A stretch of 43,102 nucleotides of DNA from Candidatus Nanohaloarchaea archaeon (lineage in GTDB: Archaea > Nanohalarchaeota > Nanosalinia > Nanosalinales > Nanosalinaceae): contig JBEQAY010000001.1 of NCBI GenBank assembly GCA_041640075.1, positions 14,845 to 57,946 on the forward strand. Direction: 5' to 3'. Below, piece by piece: positions 26,635 to 42,535 of the stretch. The notes under the pieces are model-generated. The model was given only the letters and a program-made list of their open reading frames with translations. It did no database searches and was not told the origin of the DNA. Each line of letters begins with the position of its first letter. Position 1 is the first letter of the stretch. The position numbers and the translations under genes were made by a program.

Positions 26635-27015
26635 GTGAAAGACAAAATCTTCAGCTTCACACCTCTCGGCAGAGCAGATCTCCTGCTCGAAGAATTCATA
26701 GGAGAAAACCCGAAGAAAGAACAGAAAGAATTCCAGGCATACGAGACCGCACTCGCCAAGTACCGGAATCTTAAGCTCTTCCAGATAATAGTCAAAATCC
26801 TGCTCTACGCCGGACTAATAACATCAATAGTCGCATCACTCGGATTCCAGCAGATAAGGATAATCAACCAGATCGCATCCTACATCGGTGTAACCTTCCT
26901 TCTAATCGCCTACGTCGCCGTAAACTACTTCACAATGATCTACCGAGAAGAATACCACGTCAGAAGAGAAATACTCGTATCAAAAACAGAAATAAGACAA
27001 GAAAAACCAGAATAA
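26635..27015 (+). CDS. Small two-TM membrane protein
   Basis: 126-aa ORF with two hydrophobic helices; TTTTTAA box upstream; exact start uncertain. Confidence 0.65.
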   Translation: MKDKIFSFTPLGRADLLLEEFIGENPKKEQKEFQAYETALAKYRNLKLFQIIVKILLYAGLITSIVASLGFQQIRIINQIASYIGVTFLLIAYVAVNYFTMIYREEYHVRREILVSKTEIRQEKPE

Positions 27016-27022
27016 CTCATAA

Positions 27023-27103
27023 AAGCCATGTAAAACATGGCTTCGGCATGATGAAATTCGAAACTCAAAGAGTTTCTGCTTTCACAGAAAATCTAAGATT
27101 TTC
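27023..27103. repeat. Cluster of three short perfect hairpins downstream of tRNA-Ser
   Basis: AAGCCATGT-aaa-ACATGGCTT 27023-27043; GAAACTC-aaa-GAGTTTC 27060-27076; GAAAATC-taa-GATTTTC 27087-27103. Confidence 0.85.
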
Positions 27104-27125
27104 GAGAACTTTGTCACAGAAGTTT

Positions 27126-27211
27126 CGCCGAGGCTGGGATTTGAACCCAGGAGGGCAGTGACGCCCACCACCTTTCCAGGGTGGCACCTTTAGCCACTCA
27201 GTCACCTCGGC
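27126..27211 (-). tRNA. tRNA-Ser(GGA); no intron, CCA not encoded
   Basis: GCCGAGG/CCTCGGC acceptor stem; CCACC-CTGGAAA-GGTGG anticodon arm; long variable arm; GGTTCAAATCC T-arm; G discriminator. Confidence 0.97.
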
Positions 27212-27267
27212 AAATAGCATATTTGCTTGAGGTCGAGAAAACTCGTTCGAGTTTTCGACCCTCGGCA
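27205..27267. repeat. Double-hairpin insert flanked by the 8-bp direct repeat CCTCGGCA (tRNA 5' end)
   Basis: Repeat copies at 27205-27212 and 27260-27267; hairpins at 27210-27226 and 27237-27256. Confidence 0.75.
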
Positions 27268-27351
27268 TACTATCTATGTAGAAAAGTCTTCGATACACTT
27301 TTTTATTTGGGTCTGTAACTTAATCAGATTCAATCCTTGAGTTTGATTCCA

Positions 27352-28008
27352 TTACTTTTTACTGCAGAATATGCTCCAGACAGGGTTTTCGAAGTCTTCA
27401 GTATTTATTTCGGACTCTTCTTTCAGGATCTTGAGGTTGTTTTCCTCCAGAATTTCCTTGATCAACTGACGTGGGTACAGGTATCTTTTTACCAGAGATC
27501 CGTCTTCCTCCTCTCTTATATCCGGTTCAGGGCTTCCTTTCGTTAGCTTGAAATTGATGTAGAGCACTCCATCTTTTTTGAGTACTCTTGAGAGCTCTGA
27601 GACTGGTTTATGTATTTTCTCTGGAGGGTAGAAATGTATTACTGAGTTGCACCAGATGCCGTCGAAAGTGTTTTTCTGAAAACCTAGATTCTTAACGTCC
27701 ATCCTGTGAAGTTTTTCACCCATGTTGTTTGCTTTGTATTTATCGGCTCCAAACTCTAGTGGCTTAGGTGCTCTATCTATCCCTGTGGTGTCGTAGCCGT
27801 TCTCCAAGAAGTAGTTGACGTCTCTACCCCAGCCACAGCCAGCATCAAGAATTCTACCGCTTTCTCCTACAAGTTTCTCAAATTTTTTCAGAAGTTGAAC
27901 GTATCCCTGCATGTGTTTCTGGTACAGCGACATCTTGTCGACGTACTGTCGAAAGTTTTCATTGAACCATTTGACAGGATCAGTGAGTTCCCTGCTCATA
28001 CAGTTCAT
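27352..28008 (-). CDS. Class I SAM-dependent methyltransferase
   Basis: ILDAGCGWGRD, FDGIWC and RVLKKDG motifs; start may be at 27999. Confidence 0.9.
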   Translation of the reverse strand: MNCMSRELTDPVKWFNENFRQYVDKMSLYQKHMQGYVQLLKKFEKLVGESGRILDAGCGWGRDVNYFLENGYDTTGIDRAPKPLEFGADKYKANNMGEKLHRMDVKNLGFQKNTFDGIWCNSVIHFYPPEKIHKPVSELSRVLKKDGVLYINFKLTKGSPEPDIREEEDGSLVKRYLYPRQLIKEILEENNLKILKEESEINTEDFENPVWSIFCSKK

Positions 28009-28025
28009 TTAGAGAATAATGGTTT

Positions 28026-28982
28026 TTACTGCTTCCATCTTTTAGGGTAAGTCTTCGGATCCATATGGACGGATTTCAGAGTCGCTGCCGTACCTTCTTC
28101 ATCGTAGAGTGCTTCAGAGTTCATATCTGCAGTTGCAAGAGCTACGAGCTCTCCTTTCAATGTGGTGATAGCCACCATCTCTCCTTGTTTTATACCGTCC
28201 TGAAAGCGTGAAATTCCTCCTGCTCCCAGATCTGCACCGTTGGCAACAGCGTTGACCGCTGAATCCTTTATAGCTATCTTCTTCAGATGCTGTATAGCTT
28301 TCTCCTTGGGATATAGGACCTCTGCCAGTTTCTCAGGATTTCCTTCGTTATGGAAGTGGTAAGCGTCAACTACTTCCTGTAACGTATTTGTTTCACCTTC
28401 CGTGATTTCTCCCTGTCTTGTTCTCCGGAGCTCTACCATCTCTGCATCGGTGTCAAGTTTCTCCCCAAGCTGGTCTATAAGTACGCGTACGTAGAACCCT
28501 GATTCACATTCTACACTTGCTAGAACATTTTTACCGTTTTTTTCCAGGAATTCTATATCGTAGACTTCTCTTTCTCTTTCTTCTCTTTTGACAGCTGATT
28601 TCTCTGGCGGAACCTGTTTGTTAGTTCCCTTGAAGCTTTTCAGAGCTTTTCTTATCTCTTCTTCGTCTTTTTCTTCCTCCAGTTCGGCCTCAAATACGTA
28701 TTCTTTGTCTGCCTGTGCAAGTGCATCGTTCAGCCTTGTAGCGGAGTTGATTCCTACCGGGAGTACTCCTGTAGCATTTGGATCCAGTGTGCCGAAGTGA
28801 CCTGTTTTCTTCAGGTCAAGTTCCTTCCTGGTCCAGGTAGATACCTGGTTGCTGGTCGGTCCGAACGGTTTATCTACTATCACTATTCCTTCTTCCAGGA
28901 GTTTTTCTGGAGATCTGTTCTCAGGGATCTCTCCGAACTCAGGGTCGGTTTCTGCTTCCTCCCTTGTATACCATTCAGACAT
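28026..28982 (-). CDS. cbf5: H/ACA RNA-guided pseudouridine synthase Cbf5 (TruB family, PUA domain)
   Basis: DKPFGPTS, GHFGTLDP, QVPPxxSAVKR, CESGFYVR, ELRRTR, DSAVNAV and YPKRWK motifs. Confidence 0.95.
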   Translation of the reverse strand: MSEWYTREEAETDPEFGEIPENRSPEKLLEEGIVIVDKPFGPTSNQVSTWTRKELDLKKTGHFGTLDPNATGVLPVGINSATRLNDALAQADKEYVFEAELEEEKDEEEIRKALKSFKGTNKQVPPEKSAVKREEREREVYDIEFLEKNGKNVLASVECESGFYVRVLIDQLGEKLDTDAEMVELRRTRQGEITEGETNTLQEVVDAYHFHNEGNPEKLAEVLYPKEKAIQHLKKIAIKDSAVNAVANGADLGAGGISRFQDGIKQGEMVAITTLKGELVALATADMNSEALYDEEGTAATLKSVHMDPKTYPKRWKQ

Positions 28983-29057
28983 ATGAAAAGGAGTTCGGTC
29001 CGAGTTTTTTAACTGGAGAGGAAATAGAGTGGAAAGGAGGAAAAAATTGAACTTTTT

Positions 29058-29774
29058 CTACTGGACGCCGAGAAGCTTCCTGAAGATGTAGGTCAGCGGC
29101 ATGATCATGATAAAGTAGAATCCCAGCCAGTTCAGCGCGTTCCCTACATACGGTATATTCACTGGTAGAGGGACGAAGTGGGCGTTCAGCTTCAGTTTAG
29201 CGTCATTTGGCTGATCCTGAACTGTTTCAAAGTTCATGAACTGCCAGTTGACTCCCAGAATTTTGACAGTCTCCTTGAGGCCTGCTTCACTGCTCCCTGA
29301 CTGCAAAATTATCTCTGAGTTATTCTTCACCTGTAGTTCCTGGGTCTGATCTGCGTACTGCAGCTGTCCTGTAAACGTGTTGTTCTGGGTTTCGTTCATC
29401 TGTATGTCAGGTGCGTACGTGTTTCCAAGCCATGGGAAGAAAAGTCCCACGAATATTATCGTGGCGAACATTGGCTTCATGTTAAGCATCATAAACTTCT
29501 GGTTGAGCTGCAGAGTCTTCTTCATATGTTCTGAAGCCTTGTCGTGCTTATCGTTTTCCCTGGCTTCCTTCATCTTGTCCTGGTAATCATTCAGCTTCTC
29601 CTTTATCTCGTCTGCGCGTTCAACATCAAGGAAAATCCAGTAGATAACTGCAAAAAGTCCTGCAAGTGCTGCGGAGAAAAATCCGAGAGATACGTACGGC
29701 CCTGCAACAAGCAGTGGCTGGAAAATTGCATCGTAGAATGCGAAAAGTGGTGCCAGAATCTGGGCTATGGCCAT
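29058..29774 (-). CDS. EMC3/TMCO1 (DUF106, Oxa1 superfamily) membrane protein
   Basis: TM, coiled coil, MKPMFAT, then WLGFYF...FRKLLG; canonical position downstream of secY. Confidence 0.9.
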   Translation of the reverse strand: MAIAQILAPLFAFYDAIFQPLLVAGPYVSLGFFSAALAGLFAVIYWIFLDVERADEIKEKLNDYQDKMKEARENDKHDKASEHMKKTLQLNQKFMMLNMKPMFATIIFVGLFFPWLGNTYAPDIQMNETQNNTFTGQLQYADQTQELQVKNNSEIILQSGSSEAGLKETVKILGVNWQFMNFETVQDQPNDAKLKLNAHFVPLPVNIPYVGNALNWLGFYFIMIMPLTYIFRKLLGVQ

Positions 29775-29864
29775 GTCTATCGATTGCCCAGGAAGTCTTT
29801 TAAAATACAACCAGTCTGGCGAAAAATGTGCGCTTAGAGGTTTACAAAGGGTAAAAGAGGGAAA

Positions 29865-31253
29865 TTATGTCATGAAGTCTTTGAGTGCTGGATGGAGTTC
29901 TTCCATGTGTTTCTGGGCCAGCTGCTCGTAGAGCCTGTACAGGATCATGACTGTAAGAAGGATTCCTGTTCCTCCTCCTGCGGCTCTTGTCATGTTGGCG
30001 AGTGCTGCAAGAAGTCCTACCGAGAAACCGGACAGAATTGTCAGTGCCGGGATGTAACGGTTCAAAACCTTTTTTATGACTCTCTTGTCTTTTCTGAAAC
30101 CTGGTACTTTCATCCCTGTATCCTGTATCTGTTCTGCTACAGAGTCTGCGTCCTGACCCGATGTACGCATCCAGAAGATCGAGAAAAGGATCGATCCAAA
30201 TGTGTAAACTGATGTGTAGAATAGTATATGGAATATGCCGGTGCCACCTATTGCTCCGGACTGCAGGAAGGTTTCAACTACTGTTGTGGGTGCCTGGAGG
30301 AAGTAGACGAGTCCTGACTGTGCCTGTCCCTGTGAGAAGCATCCAAGGATTGAACATCCGTCTGCTCCTGCAATAGATGATCCTACGATCTGGAAGTTTG
30401 TTACAAGTGCTGCGATTAAAATTACTGGCATGTTTGAAGTGTATATGAATTTCAGCGGCCATTTCTGTCCGAAACCTCGGACGTTTCCGAATGTTAGCGG
30501 TATTTCGACTTTCATTGACTGCATGTATACTACTGCTGAGAAAACCAGGATTGTCGAGACGATGGGTAGTAATGCGAATATGTCAAATGTTGTCAGGAAG
30601 TTGAATAATGCTCCTACTGGGCTTGCTTCACCTGTTACGCTCCAGTATAGTTCTCCTGTCTGTGTGAGTGGTGATATTGCTGATATGTAGACCTGTTTTG
30701 ATACTCCTGCTGCGATGAATAGTCCTGTTCCGGAACCGAATCCCCATTTCTGGACCAGGTCGTCCATCATGATGATCAGCCATCCTCCAAGGATGATCTG
30801 TCCGGAGAGAAGTGCCATGAGTCCTGGCTGACCTGCAACGTTTCCGAACTGTCCTGATGCCACCCATCCTACTGCCTGTATAACTGTCAATGAGTATGCG
30901 AGGACTTTCTGAGCTGCCTGGAACTTCTGTTTACCTTCCTGAGTATTTGTGTTCCAAGGCAGTAGCTCGGATCCTACAAGCATCTGGAGTACAATAGATG
31001 CTGTAACGATCGGTCCAATTCCCAATGTAATTATCGATCCGATCTGTGCTCCTAGAAGTGTCTGAAATGTTTCAAGCCGCGCAAGTGCAGTAGCAACGGC
31101 CTGAGAGTTAGCCCCATAAACGTTGATAGAACCTAAAAGGAAGTAAAGAACTAGTACTACACCTGTCCATGCCAGCATCTCCTTAAGCGATTGTTCTTTC
31201 TCTGGCTCCGTCACGCTCGGAAGGTAGCTTGCTATCTGGACAAGTGAGACCAT
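29865..31253 (-). CDS. secY: Preprotein translocase subunit SecY
   Basis: LGIGPIVTASI, KWGFGSG, PLKFIYTSNMPVIL, VPGFR and GGGTGILL motifs. Confidence 0.98.
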   Translation of the reverse strand: MVSLVQIASYLPSVTEPEKEQSLKEMLAWTGVVLVLYFLLGSINVYGANSQAVATALARLETFQTLLGAQIGSIITLGIGPIVTASIVLQMLVGSELLPWNTNTQEGKQKFQAAQKVLAYSLTVIQAVGWVASGQFGNVAGQPGLMALLSGQIILGGWLIIMMDDLVQKWGFGSGTGLFIAAGVSKQVYISAISPLTQTGELYWSVTGEASPVGALFNFLTTFDIFALLPIVSTILVFSAVVYMQSMKVEIPLTFGNVRGFGQKWPLKFIYTSNMPVILIAALVTNFQIVGSSIAGADGCSILGCFSQGQAQSGLVYFLQAPTTVVETFLQSGAIGGTGIFHILFYTSVYTFGSILFSIFWMRTSGQDADSVAEQIQDTGMKVPGFRKDKRVIKKVLNRYIPALTILSGFSVGLLAALANMTRAAGGGTGILLTVMILYRLYEQLAQKHMEELHPALKDFMT

Positions 31254-31260
31254 TTATTTT

Positions 31261-31689
31261 CTAATCCTCTAATGTAACAGCTTCTGCTCCTGCTTCTTCA
31301 ATCTTTTGTTCCGCAGAATCGGAGAATTTTTCCGCTCTAATCTCTATGTCGCGGGTTATCTTTCCTCCACCAAGAATCTTGTCATAACCTGCTTCGTCGG
31401 CGTGGAAAACATAACCATCTCCTGATTCCTCGGCTACTCCTTCTTCGACAAATTCCTGGATTCTCTGGTCGATGTCGCGCAGGTTAATTCCGTTCTGTGG
31501 TTCCTGTCGGGAGTTAAATCCGTTTTCCCCAAGTTCGTTGATTCCTTCCTTTGTCATGTTCTTTGACTGTCCTTTCTTTCCGGAACCTGCGTTTCCTCGG
31601 CCTCCACGGTTACCTGCTCCTCTGTTCTTTTTGGAGCTTCCGTGTCCGTGTGTGCCAGACTTGTTCTTCTTTGATCTTCTTCTTACCAT
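31261..31689 (-). CDS. rpl15: 50S ribosomal protein uL15
   Basis: THGHG, RGAGNRGGRGNAG, KILGGG and FSDSAxxKIEEAG motifs. Confidence 0.97.
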   Translation of the reverse strand: MVRRRSKKNKSGTHGHGSSKKNRGAGNRGGRGNAGSGKKGQSKNMTKEGINELGENGFNSRQEPQNGINLRDIDQRIQEFVEEGVAEESGDGYVFHADEAGYDKILGGGKITRDIEIRAEKFSDSAEQKIEEAGAEAVTLED

Positions 31690-31702
31690 TCTTGTATCAC
31701 CT

Positions 31703-32053
31703 CTAAATCATGTTCTTGAGGAGTTCATCCATGTTTGGACGTTTTCCAAGTGCTCCTCCATTATTGTAGTTTTTCTTCGTGCTTCTGAATCCGCCTGAAG
31801 GTGGTGTCATTGAAAGCTTTACACCAGGCTCGATCTTGACATCTTTTGAACCTGCAACTTCTTCAACTACGTCGTCGGAAACTTCTCCGTATGCGATGTA
31901 GTCTTTGGCTTTGTTCAGCATTCCTTTTATTGCTTCGTCATCGTCTTCAACGAAGAGTACCTGGTTCTTCTTTGTAAGTCCAAGTGATTCAAGTGTTGCT
32001 GAGATCTTTTCGGAAGCATCTACGTCTCCTCTAACCTTTACTACTGCAATCAC
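31703..32053 (-). CDS. rpl30: 50S ribosomal protein uL30
   Basis: IAVVKVRG, GMLNKAKDYIAYGE and PPSGGF...GGALG motifs; operon position. Confidence 0.95.
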   Translation of the reverse strand: MIAVVKVRGDVDASEKISATLESLGLTKKNQVLFVEDDDEAIKGMLNKAKDYIAYGEVSDDVVEEVAGSKDVKIEPGVKLSMTPPSGGFRSTKKNYNNGGALGKRPNMDELLKNMI

Positions 32054-32112
32054 TCGAAAACACCTCTTGTGTTTTCTGCGTGATCAAGAAAATCTTTGAT
32101 TTTCGTAATCAT
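32048..32112 (-). repeat. Double-hairpin cassette and 20-aa uORF upstream of rpl30
   Basis: Hairpins at 32056-32076 and 32088-32104; TGATT duplicated 59 bp apart; uORF 32112-32050 MITKIKDFLDHAENTRGVFE. Confidence 0.8.
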
Positions 32113-32114
32113 CT

Positions 32115-32795
32115 CTAGTTCTCCTCCTGTTCTTCAGGTTGTTTGTATTCATTGAGTTTCTGCATTGCTTCGAAGGTTGCCTTGATGACGTTCTCTCGTG
32201 TTCTGGTGCTTCCACGTGTGGTTGCCCAGATGTCTTCAATTCCTGCTAGTTCGAGCATCTTCTGGATTCCTTCTCCTGCTGCAAGACCTGTTCCTTTTGG
32301 TGCAGGTTTGAGTTCTACTTCAACGGATCCGGATTTTCCTGTGACCTTGAACGGGATTGATGTGTTCGTGTCTCCCTGATCCTCCCATGATCCGTTTCCT
32401 CTCTGTACTTCGATCAAGTTGAGCTTTGCGTTCCTGCTTGCGTCCTCGATTGCTGCACGGGTGTCATCCGACTCTCCCATGCCTACTCCGATTACCTTGT
32501 TTCTGTCGCCGAGGATTGTCATCGCCTTTGAGTTGTATCTTGCTCCTGACTTGTGCATTCTTACTGTTCTCTTGGAAACAGTACGGGATTTTCCTCCTCC
32601 TTTTCCAGGAGTTCCTCCGATAAGCACTACTTCCTCGTCAAGATCAACAAGCTGGTCTACAAGCTCCGGCTCCATGATCTCTCTGTCATGTCTTAAAGCA
32701 TCTACAATATCCGTTATCTCTCCTTTAGCTACTTTCTTACCAAGCTTGGTCTTTGGAGTCCAGATCTCTTCGTCTTCCATTTCCTGTTCGCTCAT
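32115..32795 (-). CDS. rps5: 30S ribosomal protein uS5
   Basis: WTPKTKLG, VRMHKSG, RGNGSWE and PAPKGTGL motifs. Confidence 0.97.
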   Translation of the reverse strand: MSEQEMEDEEIWTPKTKLGKKVAKGEITDIVDALRHDREIMEPELVDQLVDLDEEVVLIGGTPGKGGGKSRTVSKRTVRMHKSGARYNSKAMTILGDRNKVIGVGMGESDDTRAAIEDASRNAKLNLIEVQRGNGSWEDQGDTNTSIPFKVTGKSGSVEVELKPAPKGTGLAAGEGIQKMLELAGIEDIWATTRGSTRTRENVIKATFEAMQKLNEYKQPEEQEEN

Positions 32796-33301
32796 TCGAA
32801 ATCACCTTCGATGTTTTCTTTTACTTCTTCGAGGTTTCCGGGTACGTCTTTTCCTGTCATCTCTTGGATGTGCTCTCCTCTGATTCTTGATTCTTCTGGG
32901 AGTGCTGCTTCTCCTGCAGGTACTTCTACTCCTGCGTCTCTAAGTCCCTGGACTGCTGCGAAGACTCTTCCTTTACGTGAGTTCTTCCTGAGTCCGATGT
33001 CCAGGATTGCTTCATCTGTATCTGCTCTGTGACCTGCAAGGAATCCTGTCAGGTATGCTGCTGGAAGATTACCTGTGTGGTGTTTCCAGCCGTATTCTTC
33101 AAGCTCTTTGCTGATCGTCTGAGCTGAGTTCTCATCTCCTTCTGGTTTGTATCGGGAGATGTGTACTCGGGTATGGTTGTTTGAAAGTCGGACTACTGCT
33201 CGTGGCTTACCTGAGTTCAAAAGGTCCAGGCGCTGCTCGTAGTCTGTTTTCTGTTCCTTTCTTCTCTTGAAAGGTACTTCGTAGTTTGATGTCTCTGCCA
33301 T
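32792..33301 (-). CDS. rpl18: 50S ribosomal protein uL18
   Basis: RRKEQKTDYxxRL, NLPAAYLTG and AILDIGL motifs. Confidence 0.97.
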   Translation of the reverse strand: MAETSNYEVPFKRRKEQKTDYEQRLDLLNSGKPRAVVRLSNNHTRVHISRYKPEGDENSAQTISKELEEYGWKHHTGNLPAAYLTGFLAGHRADTDEAILDIGLRKNSRKGRVFAAVQGLRDAGVEVPAGEAALPEESRIRGEHIQEMTGKDVPGNLEEVKENIEGDFE

Positions 33302-33747
33302 TATCTTTTAACCTCGTCTTCTACGTAGTTGTTCAGGTGTTTCTTGTTCCTGAAGAACCCTCCTTTTGCCTTGTTGTAGAGCTCTCTGTACTGTTCTGAT
33401 GTTATTTCTTCTTCATCTCGCATTTCCTTGAGCTCTGATCTGAGGGCTCTGATCTTTTCCATCCATTCATCTTTCTCGGATTTCCTGGCTGTCTTCTTTC
33501 CTTTACGGCTTCCGTGGCCTTTCTGCTGTCCCTTGGCTTTCTGTTTCTTGTTGTGCTTTGCACGGGCCTTGGATGTTCCTTTCTTATCTCTTTTCTGAAT
33601 TGCTCCTCCTTCGATAAGATTTCTGATGTCCTGCCTGGTTATTGCTTCTCCTATCTTCTCCATCTGTTCAGGGTCTAACCAGACACGGTCTTCTCCAACA
33701 TCCATTACGTCTGCTGCTATTCTTTTTTGACTCTTAAGATCTGCCAT
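33301..33747 (-). CDS. rpl19e: 50S ribosomal protein eL19
   Basis: QKRIAA, RVWLDP, AITRQDIR and YRELYNKAKGG motifs. Confidence 0.97.
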   Translation of the reverse strand: MADLKSQKRIAADVMDVGEDRVWLDPEQMEKIGEAITRQDIRNLIEGGAIQKRDKKGTSKARAKHNKKQKAKGQQKGHGSRKGKKTARKSEKDEWMEKIRALRSELKEMRDEEEITSEQYRELYNKAKGGFFRNKKHLNNYVEDEVKR

Positions 33748-34076
33748 TACTTCTCTTCACCTCTGTTAAGGACTTTGATGTCCTCTTCATCTGCTTTTTC
33801 GATAATCTGTTCACGTTTACGTCCTCCGACTGTTGAACCGATTCTGGCTGCTTCGCCTTCCCCAAGTTCTTTGAGGTCGGAAGTATTGTGTACTAGTACT
33901 TCTTCGTAACCTGAAGGATGCTTTCCTCTGTGATCCTTATCAGTTCTGAAGCCTGCCTGTGGCATCGGTGCTGCTCCCTTCTTCTTTAATCGGGAACGTG
34001 AATGATGGCCTTGAGGCTTCCTCCATGATTCAGGTACTGACTTTTTCTTGTGATTATCCTGTCTATCAAATCCCAT
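33747..34076 (-). CDS. rpl32e: 50S ribosomal protein eL32
   Basis: SWRKPQG, RGKHPSGYEEVLVHN and VGGRKR motifs. Confidence 0.95.
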   Translation of the reverse strand: MGFDRQDNHKKKSVPESWRKPQGHHSRSRLKKKGAAPMPQAGFRTDKDHRGKHPSGYEEVLVHNTSDLKELGEGEAARIGSTVGGRKREQIIEKADEEDIKVLNRGEEK

Positions 34077-34594
34077 TATTCTTCTACCTCCGTGATGTAG
34101 ATACCGTCCTGGAAGGTTCTTGGATCTCTGTTTCCTTTGTCAGAGAGCTGTTCGATCCTTGCAGCTGTCTGAGCTACGTTTTCCTTGTCGCTGCCTCTGA
34201 CTTCGATTTCCTCTCCATCTACTGAAACGTCGACTCCTTCCATTATATCTGCTTTACGCGGGTTTCTTTCACCCATGAAGTTCTCCACGACAAGCTGATC
34301 TCCCTGTGTCTTGATTGTCATAGGGAAGTGAGCGTAAACACCTTTCAGGTGGTAAACATGCTCGTCCTGAAGGCCTTCTATCATGTTTTCTGTGTGGCTC
34401 TTGAACGTCTTAACGATGCTCTCGATATCTTTCTTGCTGCTGTCTGTCGAGAACTTTACTGACCCGTTTGTCTCTACGTCGATCAGTGCGTGCTTCATCT
34501 TCTTCTCTACCGTTTTATCTCCATCGCTGACTTCAAGGACTCCGTTCTCGTAGTCTGCTTCAAATCCTTCAGGTAGTTCAATTTCCAGTTCCAT
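34076..34594 (-). CDS. rpl6: 50S ribosomal protein uL6
   Basis: YAHFPM, NFMGE, QTAARIEQ and DPRTFQDGIY motifs. Confidence 0.97.
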   Translation of the reverse strand: MELEIELPEGFEADYENGVLEVSDGDKTVEKKMKHALIDVETNGSVKFSTDSSKKDIESIVKTFKSHTENMIEGLQDEHVYHLKGVYAHFPMTIKTQGDQLVVENFMGERNPRKADIMEGVDVSVDGEEIEVRGSDKENVAQTAARIEQLSDKGNRDPRTFQDGIYITEVEE

Positions 34595-34606
34595 TTTTCT
34601 GCACCT

Positions 34607-34996
34607 CTAGTAGACGTATCCGAGGAGTTTTCCTCCGATCTGTTCTTCTCGGGCCTCGTCATGAGTCATGACTCCCTGAGGGGTTGTTACGATAAGCTTT
34701 CCGAATCCCTGCGCTGGCAGGTATCTTCGAGCCCATTTTGCGTACTCGTTATTGCTCATCGAGAACCTTGGCTTGATCGACTGGCATTCGTTGATCGTTT
34801 CCTTGACTTCAACCTTGAACTTGCCTCCTTTACCGTCCTCGACAAGTTCAAAGACTCCGATGTATCCCTGCTGCTGTAGCTCGATAAGCACGTTCTTTAC
34901 CAGATTGCTGGTAGGTGAGATCGTTGCGTAATCGTTACCTGATCTCGCTGCATTGTTTATTGACGAAAGTGCATCGCTCAGTGTATCTTGTGACAT
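34607..34996 (-). CDS. rps8: 30S ribosomal protein uS8
   Basis: GYIGVFE, IKPRF, YLPA, TTPQGVMTH and GGKLLGYVY motifs. Confidence 0.97.
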   Translation of the reverse strand: MSQDTLSDALSSINNAARSGNDYATISPTSNLVKNVLIELQQQGYIGVFELVEDGKGGKFKVEVKETINECQSIKPRFSMSNNEYAKWARRYLPAQGFGKLIVTTPQGVMTHDEAREEQIGGKLLGYVY

Positions 34997-35010
34997 TATA
35001 TCTTCCTCCT

Positions 35011-35235
35011 TTAACTCAGTTGCTCGAAACCGAGCTCCTCTGCGATTTCACGGAAGCACTGTCTGCAGTAGTCGAGTCCATACTTTGAGATAACTCCTCT
35101 ACCTGTTCTTCCGCATCTTCTGCATTCTTTCTTTGATTTTCCGAAATCCCTCTCCTTTGGGGAGTTGTGCTTCTCATACTTTCTTCTCTTACCTTCCTTG
35201 TGCTTTATCTGTTCAAGTACTTCTTCATAACCCAT
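35011..35235 (-). CDS. rps14: 30S ribosomal protein uS14 (zinc type)
   Basis: CRRCG...[13 protein letters not shown]. Confidence 0.95.
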
Positions 35236-35751
35236 TTATTGGGTCACCTCCATTCCGAGCTCGTCTTCAACGAACTCTCTGGCTTCTTCGTCACTGATCT
35301 TGTGATCCTTTCCAAGTTCTCTTGGCTTGTGATCTCTCTTCTTGACCCTGTATCCAGGTCTCTCAAGTTTTACTGCGACCTCGAAACCACGCATACCGAT
35401 GTCGGAATCGTAGTCGATTCCTGGTACGTCGATGTACTCGCTGATTCCGAAGGAAAAGTTTCCGTTTCCATCGAATGCCTGTTCTGAGATCTGGCTGTCT
35501 GCTGCTGGCAGGACTTTTTCAAGGAATTCTCGGGCTTCTTCTCCTCTCAGTGTTGTCATTACTCCCAGGTTGAGTCCGGCACGTTTTCCAAAGGTCTTTG
35601 CGTCTCCTCCGGATTCTGTTCTGACTGCCTGGCTTCCTGTCAGTTTTTCGACAAGTGCAACTGATTTCTCTACAGGATCTCCGACTTCTCCTGTTCCAAT
35701 GTTGACAACGACCTTTGCGATCTCGATCTGTTTCATTTCATTTTCTGTCAT
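35236..35751 (-). CDS. rpl5: 50S ribosomal protein uL5
   Basis: KVVVNIG, TLRG, FDGNGNFSFGI and RPGYRV motifs; ATG at 35751. Confidence 0.97.
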   Translation of the reverse strand: MTENEMKQIEIAKVVVNIGTGEVGDPVEKSVALVEKLTGSQAVRTESGGDAKTFGKRAGLNLGVMTTLRGEEAREFLEKVLPAADSQISEQAFDGNGNFSFGISEYIDVPGIDYDSDIGMRGFEVAVKLERPGYRVKKRDHKPRELGKDHKISDEEAREFVEDELGMEVTQ

Positions 35752-35756
35752 GGTGA

Positions 35757-36407
35757 TCACTTGATGTCTAGTCCTGTCGTTGCTACAAGGTTTTCTAGCT
35801 GGGTTTCAAATGTAGTATCGTTTTCGATGATAGCTGTGTCAGGGTTCATTCCTCTTCTCTCGATTTCCTTGACTTCTACAGCGTCGCCTGCATGCTTTCC
35901 GCGGACTACAAGTGCTTCAGCTCCTTCTTCAAGCTCGACTTCTTCCACTCCGTCTCCGAATACTAGTGTGTTGCCTGTCTCGAACTCGTCCTTGGTGCTG
36001 TAGTTCTCTCCTGTGTGGAGTCTGTAGACAAATCTGTCTCCTTCTTCATGCTTGTCTACTACTTTTCCTACAGGTTTTCCTGAATCGACTGGTACGAAAT
36101 CCAGGTTAGCTCCGTTCTTGACTACCCGGAATGTTTCTTCTGTCTCCGGAATCTCGATCAAATCAAGTACTCCTACTCCATCCTGGATATCTCTTACTGG
36201 TTCTCCGTTTCTCAGGAGATCTCCATTTCTGATTATTTCTTTTGCTTCTTTCTCTGTCTCCGCGTACTCAAGTACGTCCCTTAGGAAAAGTCCTGCTGGG
36301 ATTGCGGAGTCTGCATCTCTCGAACCTTTGATGGTTGAGACATACTTCTCTTTCTTCCGTTCAATCGGATAATGTTTCGGTGCTGAAAGTCTCTTCTGAT
36401 GTGTCAT
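35757..36407 (-). CDS. rps4e: 30S ribosomal protein eS4
   Basis: HQKRLSAP, LRDVLEYA and GKHAG motifs; ATG at 36407. Confidence 0.95.
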   Translation of the reverse strand: MTHQKRLSAPKHYPIERKKEKYVSTIKGSRDADSAIPAGLFLRDVLEYAETEKEAKEIIRNGDLLRNGEPVRDIQDGVGVLDLIEIPETEETFRVVKNGANLDFVPVDSGKPVGKVVDKHEEGDRFVYRLHTGENYSTKDEFETGNTLVFGDGVEEVELEEGAEALVVRGKHAGDAVEVKEIERRGMNPDTAIIENDTTFETQLENLVATTGLDIK

Positions 36408-36412
36408 AAAAT

Positions 36413-37231
36413 TCAATCCTCCTTCTGATTCTCCAGGTATTCGATCATGGTTTTACGGTCCTTGTTGGACTTCTCGGCCTGGATAAGTGCGTCAAAGTCA
36501 GGGCTCTCCATCTCGGAGATCTGATCCTTCGCATCGCCGATTGTCCCGCCTACAACGTCACTGTAGTCGGAACTTTCCTCTGAAGCTTCCTCATCCGTCT
36601 CCTCGTCAGAGGTATCGGTTTCAGAAGACTCTTTGTCTTCGGATTCGGCGTCTTCAACGATTTCTTCCTCGTCAACTTCTTCCTCGATCTGTTCTTTGAC
36701 TTCTTCGATCTCTTCTTCGTCCATATCCTCGAACTGTTCGTGGGCTCCTGACTGTCCGCCCTGCATCTGCTGCATCATCTCTTCCTCTTCGTCTTCTTCG
36801 AGTGCTTCTTCGACTTCTTCGTCGTCTACCTTGATGGATTCGAAGTCTGAAATATCGTACTTGTCCAGTCTGTCCTCTTCTGAAAGGTTAAGGCTCTGGA
36901 TCTGTACGTTTGATGGTCTGAGAGGGATCTGATGTACTGTACCGTCGACGGCTTCTTTTTCTACTCCGTCGATGTAGATCCTCTCGTTTTCTCTGTCAAT
37001 ATTGTTTACGATTCCCTCTGCTCCTTTCCTGTCTCCACGCATTACTTTAACTCGGTCTCCGTTCCTGATTCCGATGTTGCGTGTTCCTAGTTCGTCTCTG
37101 AGGTTGTGTGAAAGGTTTGCTGAGATGAAATTATCTTTTACGTGCTGTGGAGCGTTTTCTCTGTACTTTCTCTGCTTCTGAGGATCTGTGCTTGATTTCC
37201 AGCTTCTGCTCCAGTTTTCTGTCTGCTTCAT
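36413..37231 (-). CDS. rpl24: 50S ribosomal protein uL24 with a long acidic C-terminal extension
   Basis: PQKQRKY, GDRVKVMRG KOW motif and PSNV; then ~150 extra residues. Confidence 0.95.
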   Translation of the reverse strand: MKQTENWSRSWKSSTDPQKQRKYRENAPQHVKDNFISANLSHNLRDELGTRNIGIRNGDRVKVMRGDRKGAEGIVNNIDRENERIYIDGVEKEAVDGTVHQIPLRPSNVQIQSLNLSEEDRLDKYDISDFESIKVDDEEVEEALEEDEEEEMMQQMQGGQSGAHEQFEDMDEEEIEEVKEQIEEEVDEEEIVEDAESEDKESSETDTSDEETDEEASEESSDYSDVVGGTIGDAKDQISEMESPDFDALIQAEKSNKDRKTMIEYLENQKED

Positions 37232-37238
37232 TTTTAGA

Positions 37239-37637
37239 TCACACTACTTTTGAGGCGATTTTTCCTACAGGGCTGAACCTTTGAACTACTTCCTTTGCGA
37301 TAGGTCCTTTGGTTACAGATCCTTTAGGCAGTCCGCCTTCTTCCATCAGGACTGCTGCGTTATCTTCGAATTTTACTCTGAGTCCGCTTGGTCTCTGGAA
37401 CTCCTTTCTCTGTCTTACGATTACTGCGTCAAATACCTGGTGCTTAACTTCCTCATCTCCCTTCAGGATCTTGACAACGACGATGTCGCCAACTCCTGCG
37501 GAGTTTCTACGGCTTCTGCGGCCTTGCTTGCTTTTGATTCCGATTATCTTCAGTTTCTGTGCTCCAGAGTTATCTGCACATGTAAGTTCTGAGCCGATGT
37601 CAAGAGTTCGTGTAATGTTTGATCCTACTGGCTTCAT
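37239..37637 (-). CDS. rpl14: 50S ribosomal protein uL14
   Basis: CADNSGA, AVIVRQRK and FEDNAAV motifs. Confidence 0.98.
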   Translation of the reverse strand: MKPVGSNITRTLDIGSELTCADNSGAQKLKIIGIKSKQGRRSRRNSAGVGDIVVVKILKGDEEVKHQVFDAVIVRQRKEFQRPSGLRVKFEDNAAVLMEEGGLPKGSVTKGPIAKEVVQRFSPVGKIASKVV

Positions 37638-37644
37638 TCTTTGA

Positions 37645-37950
37645 TCATTCCTCGTCTACTTCGATTTCTTCGTCGTCATCGAAAACCTTCATGATGACGT
37701 GGCTCTTGGTTTTTGAGATAGGTCGTGTCTCTCCCACTTTAACCTGATCGCCTTCCTCAAGTTCGACGTCTTCAGGTACGTGGACTGAGATCTTAGTATT
37801 TCTTCTTTCATATCTTTCGAACTTTGGAACTTTCTCAGCGTACTCCCATCTTACGGTTGCTGACTTGTCCATTTTTGTGGATACGACTCTTCCAACGAAA
37901 GTTCCTCCTCTGATCGGGTATTCTGTTTCAATTTCGGATTCTGCACTCAT
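37645..37950 (-). CDS. rps17: 30S ribosomal protein uS17
   Basis: GRVVSTKMDKS, KFERYERR and GETRPISKTK motifs; SD GAGGTGA. Confidence 0.97.
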   Translation of the reverse strand: MSAESEIETEYPIRGGTFVGRVVSTKMDKSATVRWEYAEKVPKFERYERRNTKISVHVPEDVELEEGDQVKVGETRPISKTKSHVIMKVFDDDEEIEVDEE

Positions 37951-37976
37951 TATCTTGGTTCACCTCTAAACAAACT

Positions 37977-38089
37977 TCTCCGCCAGAACTTCAAAGGGAA
38001 TAGACTATGCACTCTACAAAAGTGATTTTTCCATTCACCCCCGAAAGTATCGGTCGCCCGACTTCCAGCGGAAATGACACTCGCGTGTC
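37977..38089 (-). ncRNA. Candidate structured 5' leader RNA of rps17 and the downstream operon
   Basis: Two GCGA-tetraloop hairpins, a 12-bp closing stem and a long interrupted hairpin, folded by eye; G-U pairs work only on the minus strand. Confidence 0.65.
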
Positions 38090-38112
38090 GTAACATCAAA
38101 AGACAAACTAAA

Positions 38113-38122
38113 CCTTAAAAAG
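38113..38122 (-). promoter_or_regulatory. TATA box (TTTTTAAG) for an internal promoter upstream of the rps17 leader
   Basis: About 25 nt upstream of the first leader hairpin. Confidence 0.55.
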
Positions 38123-38142
38123 GGTGTTAATGAAAAAGGTCT

Positions 38143-38427
38143 TCAGTCAAAATCTTCCCAGTTACTTGGTATTTTCATGTCTATACGGTCTTCAGGACGC
38201 TTGGCGATAGTTTTCCCGTTGAGTTCGACTTTTTCTCCTGAAGGTATCTCTATCAGGAATGTGCAGTTCTCTTTTTCGATCTGTTTACCGTCGATTGTGA
38301 GTGTGTCCCGTGTTTCGTCCAGGATCTCGCCCTTGATCCCTTCCTGTGTCGGGTCAGTTGACTCTATTATCTCTGCTTCCAGTCCGATGAGTTCGTGGCG
38401 TGGCAGGTTTTCCGGTGTGATAGGCAT
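38143..38427 (-). CDS. rnp1: Ribonuclease P protein component 1 (Rpp29/POP4)
   Basis: HELIGL, GxILDETRDTL and GxxIAKRPEDR motifs; canonical position before rps17. Confidence 0.95.
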   Translation of the reverse strand: MPITPENLPRHELIGLEAEIIESTDPTQEGIKGEILDETRDTLTIDGKQIEKENCTFLIEIPSGEKVELNGKTIAKRPEDRIDMKIPSNWEDFD

Positions 38428-38473
38428 TGGAAATCCTTTGTTTGAGAAGTCTTATTGAGGTTGGGGAAAATTT

Positions 38474-38998
38474 TCAGTTCCATTCGTTTTCTAGGATTCC
38501 GTACATGTAGAGGTCTTCGTGTTTTCCTTCGTGGTATGCCTGTTCACGTAGTTCTGCTTCTTTCTCAAAGCCGAGTTTCTCCCATATGCTCTGCGATGCT
38601 TCGTTAGTTCCCAGGGCTCTTGCGACAACTTTGTGGACCCGGAGTTCCCTGAAGGCATAGTCTATCATCAGTTCTGATGCTTCTGTTCCGTAGCCGTTTC
38701 CGTGGTGTTCCGGATGTATCCAGAGGCCGAGCTGTTTGACTCCTTGTTCTTTTTCCGGTGAAAGGCTGATCATCCCTATCATTTCTTCTTCGTGGGAGAT
38801 CGCCAGGTTCACTTCTTCGTCACCGCAGATGACCTGTTCAAAAAATTCTCTTTCCTGTTCAAGGTTTGCAGGTTTTGAATGGGAAATATTTGTCCTGATA
38901 TTGGTCAGGTTGTAGGTGTCACGGATGAATTCGATGTCTTCTTCCTCTACAGTTCTGAGGTTGATCTTCTCTCCTTCAAGGAAAACTGCTCCTGGCAT
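38474..38998 (-). CDS. GNAT family N-acetyltransferase (RimJ/RimL type)
   Basis: LGLWIHPEHHGNGYGTEA, NEASxxxWEKLGF and YGILxxEW motifs. Confidence 0.92.
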   Translation of the reverse strand: MPGAVFLEGEKINLRTVEEEDIEFIRDTYNLTNIRTNISHSKPANLEQEREFFEQVICGDEEVNLAISHEEEMIGMISLSPEKEQGVKQLGLWIHPEHHGNGYGTEASELMIDYAFRELRVHKVVARALGTNEASQSIWEKLGFEKEAELREQAYHEGKHEDLYMYGILENEWN

Positions 38999-39080
38999 AC
39001 CTATGTATACGAGATGTAGAATTTAATATCCTATGAGTAAGAGAAATAGAGAGAATAAGTAAATTAGAGAAAAGAGAGAT

Positions 39081-39386
39081 TTACTGGACTTCGATGTTTT
39101 CCTTGTCGAAGCCTTCTTCCGCCAGGACGTCTTTTATCCTGCGTGTGTGGTCTCCCTGTAACTCAATCTGTCCGTCTTTGGCTGTTCCTCCGCATGCAAG
39201 CTTGGATTTAAGGCTGGAGGCAAGTTCGTCGAGATCTATGTCGTCTCCGAGTCCTTCGACGACTGTCATCTCCTTGTTGTAGCTTCGGGAGTCAATCTTG
39301 ACTTTGATTTTTTGCTCGGCTCTCGCCAGAGAATCTGAGATGTCGAGTTCGTCTTCGATTCCGCTGTTGGGATTGATGTCTGACAT
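39081..39386 (-). CDS. sui1: Translation initiation factor SUI1/aIF1 homolog
   Basis: LKSKLACGGT and IELQGDH motifs. Confidence 0.95.
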   Translation of the reverse strand: MSDINPNSGIEDELDISDSLARAEQKIKVKIDSRSYNKEMTVVEGLGDDIDLDELASSLKSKLACGGTAKDGQIELQGDHTRRIKDVLAEEGFDKENIEVQ

Positions 39387-39397
39387 TATAGTATAAT

Positions 39398-39601
39398 CTA
39401 GTTAGAACTTTTCTCGTTTAAAACAGTTTTAATCCGGGCGATGCTTTTCTTCATGTCTGCAAGTTCACCAGGGTTCTCTGCGAAGCCTCCTACTTCGATC
39501 TGACCTCTTTCCTTTACAAGTTCCTTCTGAAGGTCTGTAAGCTGCTGCTGGAGTTCGTCTTCCGTCTTGTCTCTGAGTTCCTGTGTGTCAAGCTTTGTCA
39601 T
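39398..39601 (-). CDS. rpl29: 50S ribosomal protein uL29
   Basis: ELR...ENPG...KKSIARIKTVLNE; operon position. Confidence 0.95.
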   Translation of the reverse strand: MTKLDTQELRDKTEDELQQQLTDLQKELVKERGQIEVGGFAENPGELADMKKSIARIKTVLNEKSSN

Positions 39602-39613
39602 AGATAACCACCT

Positions 39614-40681
39614 TTAACCTTCAACTCTGGTTTCAAGCCAGTCTGTGAAGGTTGTACGGTTTTTGTCGTTTTCTTCTGCTTCGAGAAGTGCCTCGTAGTC
39701 CGGATTATCCAGATCTTCTATTGCGTCTTTAGCATCGCTGATTGTTCCGGATACAATTTCCTCGTACTCTGCCTCTGCTCCTTCACTTTCTTCAGCTTGT
39801 TCTGTATCCTCTACAGGAGGTTCTTCATCAGCTTTGGATTCGTCTTCCTGTTCTTCCTCTGGTTCTTCACTTACTGCTTCTTCTTCGTCTTCAGTTTCTT
39901 CTTTGGATTCGAAGGCGTCTCTTACTTCGTCTACCTCGATGTCTGAGGTTTCGATTGTTTCTCCTCTTTCTTCAATTGCTCTTTCGATTTCACCTGAAGT
40001 CATGTTGTCTGCTTCTTCTATGACGTCTTCAATCCTGGTTGATTTCTCTGCTGCGTCTTCGTCAACCTGTGTCTCGTGGAAGATTTCCTTTTGTACGTCT
40101 TCGATCTTTCTGTGCTGGAACTCTGGAAGTGAGTCCATGATTCGGACTTTGACTCCGATTGCTCCAGGCTTTGTACGTGCAAGTTCGTATGCCTTTGAGA
40201 CGTTGTCTTTTGATGTGTTTCCACATCTCTTTACGTATCCGAATGAGAATTTTTCTGTTCGTCCACGGTTTCCGGAGAGCTTTCCTGTGATCTCTACTTC
40301 TGCTCCGATTACTCCTGCTTCCTTCATTCTGCGGATGTAAGTGTATCCTACTCTTTTGGCGTGACCGCCTTTTTGAAGCCAGTCGGCGATGCTTTTTGCA
40401 ACGACTTTTGCGTTGGCGTCTCCTTCCTCGATCTCGTTGACCTCGATCTGAGGGTTTTCAAGATCGAATGCTTCTTCCATGTCTTCTGTTAGTTCGTTGA
40501 TACGTGATCCTCCACGTCCGATGACCAGTCCTGGTCTCTGTGCGTGGATCACTACTTTTGTGCTTGTAGGTGTACGCACGATATCTGAGTGGCTGTAGCC
40601 TGCTCCTTCAAGTTCCTCTTCTAGGAACTCGTCAAGTCTTACCTTGCGTGCGCCTTTCTGTATGAATTGTTTTTCTTTCAT
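39614..40681 (-). CDS. rps3: 30S ribosomal protein uS3 with a long acidic C-terminal extension
   Basis: RPGLVIGRGG KH motif, GAEVEITGKL and GAIGVKVRIM; then ~165 extra residues. Confidence 0.96.
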   Translation of the reverse strand: MKEKQFIQKGARKVRLDEFLEEELEGAGYSHSDIVRTPTSTKVVIHAQRPGLVIGRGGSRINELTEDMEEAFDLENPQIEVNEIEEGDANAKVVAKSIADWLQKGGHAKRVGYTYIRRMKEAGVIGAEVEITGKLSGNRGRTEKFSFGYVKRCGNTSKDNVSKAYELARTKPGAIGVKVRIMDSLPEFQHRKIEDVQKEIFHETQVDEDAAEKSTRIEDVIEEADNMTSGEIERAIEERGETIETSDIEVDEVRDAFESKEETEDEEEAVSEEPEEEQEDESKADEEPPVEDTEQAEESEGAEAEYEEIVSGTISDAKDAIEDLDNPDYEALLEAEENDKNRTTFTDWLETRVEG

Positions 40682-40694
40682 TCTAGTATACCTC

Positions 40695-41093
40695 TTATTC
40701 TGAAACGAATACTTTGACGTGTGCTGCTTTTGATGTCCTTCCTCTTAGTCTGGAAGGTGTTGCGACTTCTCTCCCCTGGTTGGTGATGACGTTTGAAACG
40801 TTCATCGCGTTCGGGTTGAGTCCCTGATCCTCTCCGTTGCTCTTGGCGGCCTGAACGAGCTCGAGGATTTCTTCGGCTGCCTTTACAGGATAGCCTCCTG
40901 CTTCTCCTCCGCTTCTGTGTCCTGCGTCGGAGTCGAACTTTGTGTATGGGACGTGAAGGTCTTTTTCGATTACTTTCTCAAGCTTGTGCTCGGCTTTGTC
41001 GACGGAGTCTCCCTTGATGAATCGGCCGATCTCTGTGCTGTCCTTCCATGAGATCGGAATGTTTTTGCCGACTGCCTTTGCTTCTTCTGTCAT
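40695..41093 (-). CDS. rpl22: 50S ribosomal protein uL22
   Basis: ISWKDSTEIGRFIKG, VPY and GGYPVKAA motifs. Confidence 0.95.
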   Translation of the reverse strand: MTEEAKAVGKNIPISWKDSTEIGRFIKGDSVDKAEHKLEKVIEKDLHVPYTKFDSDAGHRSGGEAGGYPVKAAEEILELVQAAKSNGEDQGLNPNAMNVSNVITNQGREVATPSRLRGRTSKAAHVKVFVSE

Positions 41094-41108
41094 TACTGAA
41101 GCACCTCT

Positions 41109-41486: not shown

Positions 41487-41490
41487 GTTA

Positions 41491-42189: not shown

Positions 42190-42200
42190 GTTAAGTCACC

Positions 42201-42470: not shown

Positions 42471-42529
42471 TTTTACGAAAACACCTCAAGTGTTTTCTTG
42501 TAAAACCGAAAATCTTTGATTTTCATTTT
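42466..42529 (-). repeat. Double-hairpin cassette and 17-aa uORF upstream of rpl23
   Basis: Hairpins at 42477-42497 and 42508-42524; AAAATGAA duplicated 56 bp apart; uORF 42526-42473 MKIKDFRFYKKTLEVFS. Confidence 0.8.
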
Positions 42530-42535
42530 GATCAC

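Follow-up and report, generated by a model that had tools for sequence, protein, structure and literature searches.

A mobile two-hairpin cassette that brings a Shine-Dalgarno sequence and start codon to rpl30 of a nanohaloarchaeon

The rps5-rpl30 junction of a Candidatus Nanohaloarchaea archaeon holds an old and a new start codon for the downstream gene, separated by two hairpins, which raises the question of what this DNA is, how it came to lie ahead of a ribosomal-protein gene and how rpl30 could be translated behind it. The junction belongs to a large ribosomal-protein operon within the window, by which we mean the whole 43,102-nucleotide stretch that was analysed; the home genome (G000) is 0.98 Mb in size and 89% complete. 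With a probability of roughly 0.7, we take the rpl30 cassette to be a small non-coding two-hairpin repeat, present or absent among close relatives, that carries its own Shine-Dalgarno sequence (SD) and start and is kept harmless by translational coupling. The best reading of the family is a selfish, non-autonomous repeat biased to highly expressed genes, and neither a conserved switch nor an intron. The junction is laid out as follows.

32115..32795, minus strand: rps5 (uS5), the upstream gene (open reading frame list; Pfam Ribosomal_S5 and S5_C)
32121..32127, minus strand: old SD GGAGGAG, in the last rps5 codons, now the SD of the uORF (sequence)
32115-32117, minus strand: rps5 stop codon TAG, 2 nt ahead of the old ATG
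32110-32112, minus strand: old ATG (sequence)
32050..32108, minus strand: mobile two-hairpin cassette, 59 nt (exact empty allele in runs X2, X3 and X5; identical unit at rpl1 in L175/L176)
32050..32112, minus strand: uORF, 20 codons from the old ATG, its TGA overlapping the new GTG (GTGA; translation)
32088..32104, minus strand: hairpin 1, 7-bp stem GAAAATC/GATTTTC, the most conserved motif of the family
32077..32087, minus strand: linker, predicted to pair with the old start (lengthening hairpin 1) and with the new GTGA (lengthening hairpin 2)
32056..32076, minus strand: hairpin 2, 8-bp stem, holding the new SD across its loop and 3' arm
32061-32066, minus strand: new SD GAGGTG, pairing with the 16S 3' end at -9.7 kcal/mol
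32051-32053, minus strand: new start GTG, cassette-borne (sequence)
31703..32053, minus strand: rpl30 (uL30), starting at the cassette GTG (Pfam Ribosomal_L30)

The anatomy described in the first-pass annotation (SD, TAG, ATG, both hairpins, linker and GTG) was present on the minus strand in its entirety, including the new SD straddling the loop and 3' arm of hairpin 2, and translation bore out the uORF (MITKIKDFLDHAENTRGVFE) that runs from the old ATG to a TGA overlapping the new GTG. The old SD pairs with the 3' end of the organism's own 16S rRNA at -10.7 kcal/mol. Two copies of TGATT are spaced 59 nt apart at the junction, the left flank of the cassette being ATGA and its right end GTGA, and the register of the unit can be slid within 32048-32111. 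In relatives rpl30 starts with ATG or GTG, and its gap to rps5 is -23 to 9 nt in 37/41 loci.

An empty rps5-rpl30 site, predicted for relatives on the strength of the window alone, does exist as DNA. Contigs of runs X2, X3 and X5 carry the exact 59-bp empty allele, with the joint running from 32047 to 32107 and 5 letters shared; the piece from X3 has 6 differences in 198 letters. The allele was empty in three of the four runs compared, the fourth, X1, matching the window and possibly being its source, and the same three runs hold another cassette at rpl18-rps5, a junction that is empty in the window. The unit also stands ahead of rpl1, unchanged from ATG through GTGA (63/63 letters), in L175 and L176, two metagenome loci that possibly stem from a single data set, and the rpl1 start of the home genome is cassette-free. 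In front of rpl1 (G026, G062) and of rps7 (G009) there are near-copies with 1-2 differences; looser versions occur at rps14 and rps7 in other genomes. The rpl30 cassette is a discrete travelling unit, real and mobile.

The copies at rpl1 also define what the unit carries. Since the ATGATTAC...GAGTGA unit precedes rpl1, whose product begins M-N-F, ATGATT is carried by the cassette; with ATGATTAC travelling in this way, the true junction repeat is therefore TGA only. The element had been described as start-codon-duplicating, a description that did not survive: ATGATTAC moves with the cassette, and across 38 cassettes there was no excess match downstream of the start (p 0.65). The letters of the 5-nt TGATT repeat are as reported, but their reading as a duplication is not, the match being partly coincidence around a shared TGA. 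On the upstream side, the match between old and new start showed a small excess (38 cassettes, p 0.0008). The junction repeat measured 2-5 nt in 31/38 cassettes, with a maximum of 15 and 20 nt in one allele, and was TGA in the two cleanest filled/empty pairs; ATGA...GTGA can be read either as a TGA duplication or as a target plus an element end. One copy in the congener G034 brings ATG and uORF to a site that has neither an ATG nor a downstream gene, so the unit's targets extend beyond start codons.

Two other readings were weighed. On-the-spot inverted duplication of the start region, or an assembly error, would draw on arms and duplications of local sequence, as seen at L19e (G006, G013), L24 (G021, G046) and S5 (G004, runs X2/X3/X5), and on the slight upstream excess match at starts. 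It is contradicted by the identical copy at rpl1, with 63/63 letters shared between two unrelated genes, and a profile built from 20 cassettes of other genomes finds the four full copies in the home genome (E 1e-6 or better; none in the reversed control), leaving a local origin very improbable. A bulge-helix-bulge (BHB) mRNA intron, excised by the tRNA splicing endonuclease to restore SD and ATG ATT GCA, would explain why clean removal of 59 nt restores the gene; EndA is present, and similar single hairpins lie within tRNA introns. A spliced unit would, however, need no SD, start or in-register stop of its own, and the empty form exists as DNA. No whole-cassette BHB was found at rpl30, and weak ones in differing registers occurred in 7/37 cassettes, with a scanner that is insensitive, since it recovered only 4/11 tRNA introns. 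We give the intron reading hardly any credence.

Beyond this junction, the strict two-hairpin pattern was found at 16 loci among 185,579 species genomes: 10 in Nanohaloarchaea/Nanohalobium/Nanosalina, 1 in Asbonarchaeaceae, 3 in entries named uncultured archaeon and 2 in Woesearchaeota. The hairpin-1 pattern occurred in 41/61 genomes (reversed control 0). In 41 Nanohaloarchaeota ribosomal-operon loci there were 43 hairpin-bearing junctions of 30-160 nt. On a tree of 11 concatenated proteins, 42 filled junctions, in 18 of the 22 junction types scored, required at least 37 changes (SUI1-P29 and P29-S17, which have extra genes or leaders, and junctions with N were excluded). Cassettes have been gained many times independently; rps5-rpl30 itself is filled in 4/41 loci, by four different cassettes. 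Comparison with congeners revealed insertion differences at 26/49 hairpin rows for G034 (14 rows without orthologous flanks) and at 8/39 for G022 (18 such rows), counts in which a few rows repeat one site.

Within the home genome, family hairpins form 15 arrays of at least two, and adjacent pairs numbered 0 in each of 3 shuffles. Insertion at the starts of housekeeping genes, as first proposed, was seen at nine gene starts with an old ATG and a family hairpin, judged by eye from protein sequence (rpl30, rpl23, rps27ae, rpl21e, an exosome subunit, topoisomerase VI A, two ATP synthase subunits and eIF5A), and likewise in the operon loci; at six further candidates the arrangement was absent or ambiguous. 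The rpl23 copy lies within the window.

42473..42526, minus strand: second cassette, at the rpl4-rpl23 junction (empty versions in runs X2 and X8 and in 12/15 loci)
42524-42526, minus strand: old ATG of this cassette (sequence)
42508-42524 and 42477-42497, minus strand: its two hairpins (sequence)

Its uORF has 17 codons and ends 2 nt ahead of the new ATG at 42468-42470. In three genomes, cassettes occupied 6/246, 12/251 and 1/270 tight junctions, and the genes downstream of them had ribosomal-like codon bias (p 7e-4 and 2e-5), a score that also follows gene class and was computed with a crude gene caller. Coding regions of the home genome contained 68 hairpins against about 40 in shuffles, mostly weak matches, and no frame-breaking copy was seen inside them.

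Related arrangements were observed in other settings. Inspection of 42 loose-pattern loci on viral contigs revealed the start-codon arrangement in none; eight viral contigs (L100, L101, L103, L110, L112, L115, L116 and L133) share a recurrent element in which hairpin 1 lies beside a G+C hairpin within a G-rich/C-rich outer stem. Hairpin arrays without an SD lie within long open frames at L163 (G022:C1:839744) and G000:C4:47423-47521 and resemble Rickettsia palindromic elements. At rpl6-rpl32e in L066 (G046), about 40 nt of gene end and start are duplicated with G+C-rich hairpins between the copies, and the frame from the old GTG is coupled: a different repeat family with the same arrangement.

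The operon and its surroundings have further features of their own. Window 37951-38142 is a 192-nt leader before rps17 with a promoter-like start; relatives have leaders of 150-330 nt with shared short motifs, and we regard it as a candidate conserved regulatory RNA. Window 38474-38998 encodes a 174-aa ORF, acetyltransferase-like by eye, between SUI1 and an RNase P subunit, an interval that is highly variable among relatives. A small cysteine-rich ORF lies between rpl32e and rpl19e in L064-L067 and L069 (families f3/f4). Repeats of about 303 nt fill window 7875-11707 in the gene of a large repetitive protein. Just beyond the window end (G000:C1:57750-57900), a scaffold gap whose flanks are duplicated interrupts rpl4; this is an artefact of the assembly.

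We then considered how rpl30 and its counterparts could be translated behind a cassette. The coupled uORF and stem-buried SD described at rpl30 recurred throughout the family. In 38/38 cassettes the frame from the old ATG stopped within -4..+8 of the new start, in 35 of them at +4 (14), +1 (12) or 0 (9) and in the rest at -2, -4 or +8; the other two frames ended there in 1/38 and 3/38, and shuffles in 17%. The interval was chosen post hoc and the cassettes are related by descent; the counts therefore lack independence, and 38/38 carries no formal p-value. Under a wider rule that allows GTG and 8-nt overlaps, 42/43 were coupled (the exception being S4e-L5 in G021), as were 8/9 gene-start copies in the home genome, where one uORF ends at -10. 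An SD preceded the new start in 37/37 cassettes ending at a start, compared with 435/570 plain junctions, and lay in the last hairpin in 15/21 start arrays versus 1/30 other ends (15/16 versus 4/40 after five tRNA-leader arrays were reassigned by hand). All three frames of hairpin 1 are in use, so the uORF peptide is not conserved and is unlikely to matter. Among 31 long hairpin-free junctions, 19 had no start, 9 were coupled and 3 uncoupled, several of the coupled ones being recognisable as decayed cassettes. Because decayed copies retain frame and SD and lose their hairpins, selection after insertion appears to keep frame and SD and not the stems.

The cited sections of PMC6728339 describe experiments in Haloferax and E. 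coli that showed coupling at ATGA/TGATG overlaps in 13 of 14 gene pairs. The cassettes share with such pairs the overlaps themselves (ATGA, TAATG/TGATG), with the stop overlapping or abutting the downstream start, an SD inside the upstream frame and a start structure that translation would open; they differ in that two real genes are linked there, whereas the cassettes are mobile and set up the arrangement anew with a disposable uORF. From this layout, we infer uORF translation and coupling in the cassettes. Ribosomes finishing rps5 would restart at the old ATG; while translating the uORF they would unwind both hairpins and stop on GTGA, and they would then restart at the GTG by way of the SD that they had just exposed, direct loading there being blocked, as predicted, by the stem. 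Insertion is likely tolerated because ribosomes pass through the uORF and reinitiate on the displaced gene, and is probably harmless to the host. Coupling may act as a filter on survival, given that inserted copies lose their hairpins over time and keep frame and SD.

Folding predictions agree with a closed new start. The rpl30 cassette region folded better than 200/200 shuffles (z -3.6), the last three bases of the new SD were predicted to be paired, and the predicted opening cost was 16.4 kcal/mol for the new start region and 11.2 for the old. Predicted accessibility of the SD window was 0.31 in filled and 0.53 in plain junctions. The linker paired better with the tail of its own cassette (what follows hairpin 2, start codon included) than with swapped tails (-3.4 versus -2.6 kcal/mol, p 0.0002; p 0.011 on 19 unique tails), and among 17 cassettes with a 2-nt spacer CAC faces GTG in 4 and CAT faces ATG in 3. 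This pairing fits equally well with single-stranded DNA or RNA structure during spread, with template-switch correction or with regulation. Pair counting on alignment A1, which contains 7 near-identical rows and has its hairpin-1 brackets off register, gave values as high in 55/500 shuffles. Two structural candidates were rejected: a closed dumbbell intermediate, as circular folds were no more stable than linear ones in 38/38 cassettes cut start to start, and a kink-turn at the GCA/GA loop, the register of which is at odds with the kink-turn consensus. The rpl30 unit itself scored -19.0 circular versus -18.0 linear as RNA and -11.9 versus -13.8 as DNA, and was branched and not a rod. Rfam covariance models run over 26900-43102 reached gathering score for tRNA only, and the cassette matched no family.

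A stem that shuts the SD and a uORF whose translation opens it could also form a co-opted switch, tuning rpl30 output to upstream translation. The lower accessibility of SD windows in filled junctions, the covariation of linker with start codon and the preference for translation genes point in this direction. Close relatives, however, lack a cassette at rps5-rpl30 and have a different one a gene upstream; with 4/41 loci filled, almost all gains are independent; hairpins decay while frame and SD are retained; and the empty junction is already tightly spaced and of a coupling type. Co-option of the rpl30 cassette as a regulator is therefore unlikely, as judged from these comparisons of sequence.

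How the cassette spreads is the least certain step of our reading. The first-pass annotation had proposed looking for a HUH/TnpA(REP)-like or other transposase. The Y1/RAYT family (PF01797) had no match in 37 family genomes. IS110 was found in 0/5 cassette-rich genomes and DDE_Tnp_1 above cut-off in 1/5. TnpB (8/41 genomes) and RT (6/41) are both missing from the home genome; both occur in genomes without a hairpin-1 match and do not track cassette load. Family hairpins were found neither around TnpB/RT-type genes (14 loci) nor beside 4 TnpA loci of other families, and no HUH-like motif was present among 608 shared proteins of <420 aa. The 14 proteins common to G000 and G034 but absent from G022 were ordinary or without assignment and included no mobiliser candidate. 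Tyrosine recombinases were present in 5/5 cassette-rich genomes and were not found in the incomplete home genome.

Alternatively, an enzyme dedicated to the task, a single-strand (HUH-type) or other transposase or a recombinase, might mobilise the same coupled cassette in trans, which is how REPINs and PATEs move. IS200/IS605-type insertion takes place 3' of a 4-5-nt target, and under trans-mobilisation the left-flank ATGA and right-end GTGA would be target and end tetranucleotides. A precise unit with a tiny repeat is what such an enzyme would leave; doublets and 3-4-hairpin arrays are REPIN-like (cited part of PMC3116915), 52-bp terminal-only PATEs are mobile in Haloquadratum (cited part of PMC3119063), and the tyrosine recombinases were found in all five cassette-rich genomes searched. 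The enzyme could be divergent, or could come from a virus or a host cell. Set against this are the PF01797, IS110 and DDE_Tnp_1 results, the lack of any tie between TnpB or RT and cassettes and the lack of a HUH-like motif, and we consider trans-mobilisation possible but doubtful.

We favour spread by host DNA machinery, with no dedicated transposase, over an unseen transposase or an RNA route, although we hold it tentatively and at somewhat less than even odds. Template switching, or recombination through short SD/ATG homology, would copy cassettes at heavily transcribed sites where single strands are exposed. This route is preferred because copies are partly built from local sequence and biased to highly expressed loci: some have inverted arms derived from the native start region and 12-40-nt duplications that include the SD, which fits template switching. 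Two points count against our reading. A preference for the costliest genes is unexpected in a neutral parasite, unless insertion itself were to depend on transcription. The precision of the 59-nt unit and its 3-nt repeat are also more suggestive of insertion by an enzyme than of sloppy template switching.

Among described elements, the cassette is a variant of the non-autonomous prokaryotic mobile repeats; it behaves as a MITE or REPIN would, yet no partner transposase was found for it in the genomes searched. The proposal of a REP/MITE-like mobile element accordingly divides: a mobile unit stands, on the empty sites and the copies at other genes, and membership of REP or IS200/605 is unsupported because no Y1 transposase was found in the 37 family genomes. 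The cassettes are repeated short extragenic palindromes, mostly doublets (15 home-genome arrays; 41/61 genomes); a REPIN doublet comprises two inverted copies of one conserved motif, and here both hairpins open with GAAAA and close with TTTTC, but in 14 cassettes the 2-nt flanks lacked mirror symmetry. They are also short, non-coding and multicopy, with filled and empty sites, as MITEs are, and a search of 5 cassette-rich genomes with two Pfam families gave neither a DDE nor an IS110 partner in most of them. The Chunjie MITE reportedly leaves an operon intact. REPINs, as the cited part of PMC3116915 presents them, are likewise short, extragenic, non-autonomous non-coding palindrome pairs that also occur as singlets or longer arrays, but are RAYT-moved and randomly spread in extragenic space, whereas the cassette sits at highly expressed gene starts, supplies SD, start and coupled uORF, and has no RAYT/Y1 in its family (0/37). 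The terminal-only PATEs (52 bp) and SMRs of Haloquadratum walsbyi resemble it in being archaeal, hypersaline, 50-110 bp long and transposase-free, with strain-specific insertions, and the mobilisation of SMRs is likewise unexplained; by the same cited passages (PMC3119063), PATEs have IS605-type ends and no target duplication, whereas no IS605 parent was found for the cassette, and SMR-A targets other mobile elements whereas the cassette targets gene starts. PATEs share subterminal palindromes with IS605-type elements and depend on an available TnpA; at the level of genes and of hairpins beside them, neither was found for the cassette. Prokaryotic MITEs (Correia/NEMIS, RUP, Rickettsia RPE), in the sections cited of PMC2229807 and PMC10969869, are <200 bp, A+T-rich and structured as RNA, with filled and empty sites and a short target repeat, and sometimes lie in frame in genes or in RNA genes; their terminal inverted repeats, which mostly have TA ends, pair into a single long stem, and they join ORFs in frame, whereas the cassette has two separate hairpins and is out of frame, with a stop overlapping the new start. 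No published description of the cassette was found in the open literature.

Family-like hairpins also flank many tRNAs of the home genome and occur in some introns. Those in the window, and the related sites elsewhere, are as follows.

27023..27103, plus strand: three family hairpins between a plus-strand gene and the tRNA-Ser(GGA) 3' end (profile of other genomes' cassettes, E 7e-4)
27210..27267, minus strand: two hairpins at the tRNA-Ser(GGA) 5' end, similar in kind to the start-codon cassette and possibly homologous to it
G000:C3:38444-38641, C6:3900-4073, C39:5683-5830, C12:22690-22833 and window 27205-27267: tRNA-end duplications
G000:C1:66717-66772, C3:18265-18408, C12:8157-8309, C39:1785-1930, C34:7086-7137, C25:4150-4223 and C7:17952-18002: sites of a second repeat subfamily

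At tRNA-Ser(GGA), 8 nt of the tRNA 5' end are copied upstream at 27260-27267, and duplications of 7-20 nt of tRNA ends were seen at 6/39 home-genome tRNA calls. Such 3'/5' end duplications, with hairpins between the copies, look like miniature attL/attR pairs and also occur in G021 and G001. The profile of 20 start-codon cassettes matched tRNA flanks at E about 1e-3 and an intron at E 0.54. The second subfamily, of 50-75 nt, recurs with blastn E down to 1e-8 in three tRNA introns, at two tRNA flanks and at two sites away from tRNAs, which directly indicates that the sequence of introns is also dispersed in the genome as DNA. Intron content differs among G000, G034 and G022: the introns of G000 in Thr(GGT), Leu(TAA), Arg(TCT) and Ala(TGC) are absent from the other two, by ARAGORN calls that misplace some introns (the Glu-TTC call on C13 resembles tRNA-Cys). 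Recently gained archaeal tRNA introns (cited parts of PMC3293823 and bioRxiv 10.64898/2026.10.13.758758) are similar in their patchiness and in the duplicated tRNA ends beside inserted DNA, and differ in that the start-codon cassette has no consistent splicing motif. As its own intron match is weak and the connection is clear only for the sister subfamily, the tRNA-intron connection of the start-codon cassette is only a lead.

The rpl30 cassette points to a way for selfish DNA to survive in streamlined ~1-Mb genomes without a detected Y1-type transposase: it lands at gene starts and rebuilds translation initiation within 59 letters. Filled and empty alleles in near-identical strains constitute a natural experiment on archaeal translational coupling and bear on the length and structure that a bridging uORF can tolerate, and gene callers will miss cassette uORFs or misplace starts. 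A bolder reading, which we think improbable but worth stating, is that the cassettes represent a new class of transposase-free DPANN mobile DNA, driven by transcription and host enzymes, aimed at the most expressed loci and repairing what it breaks: with SD, start and uORF at gene starts, with a duplicated end at tRNAs and with a splicing motif in anticodon loops. The origin of archaeal tRNA introns is called open in the cited passages of bioRxiv 10.64898/2026.10.13.758758, and the sister repeats in tRNA introns and flanks bear on how such introns arrive; if the bolder reading were true, the cassettes would also be the missing source of new archaeal tRNA introns.
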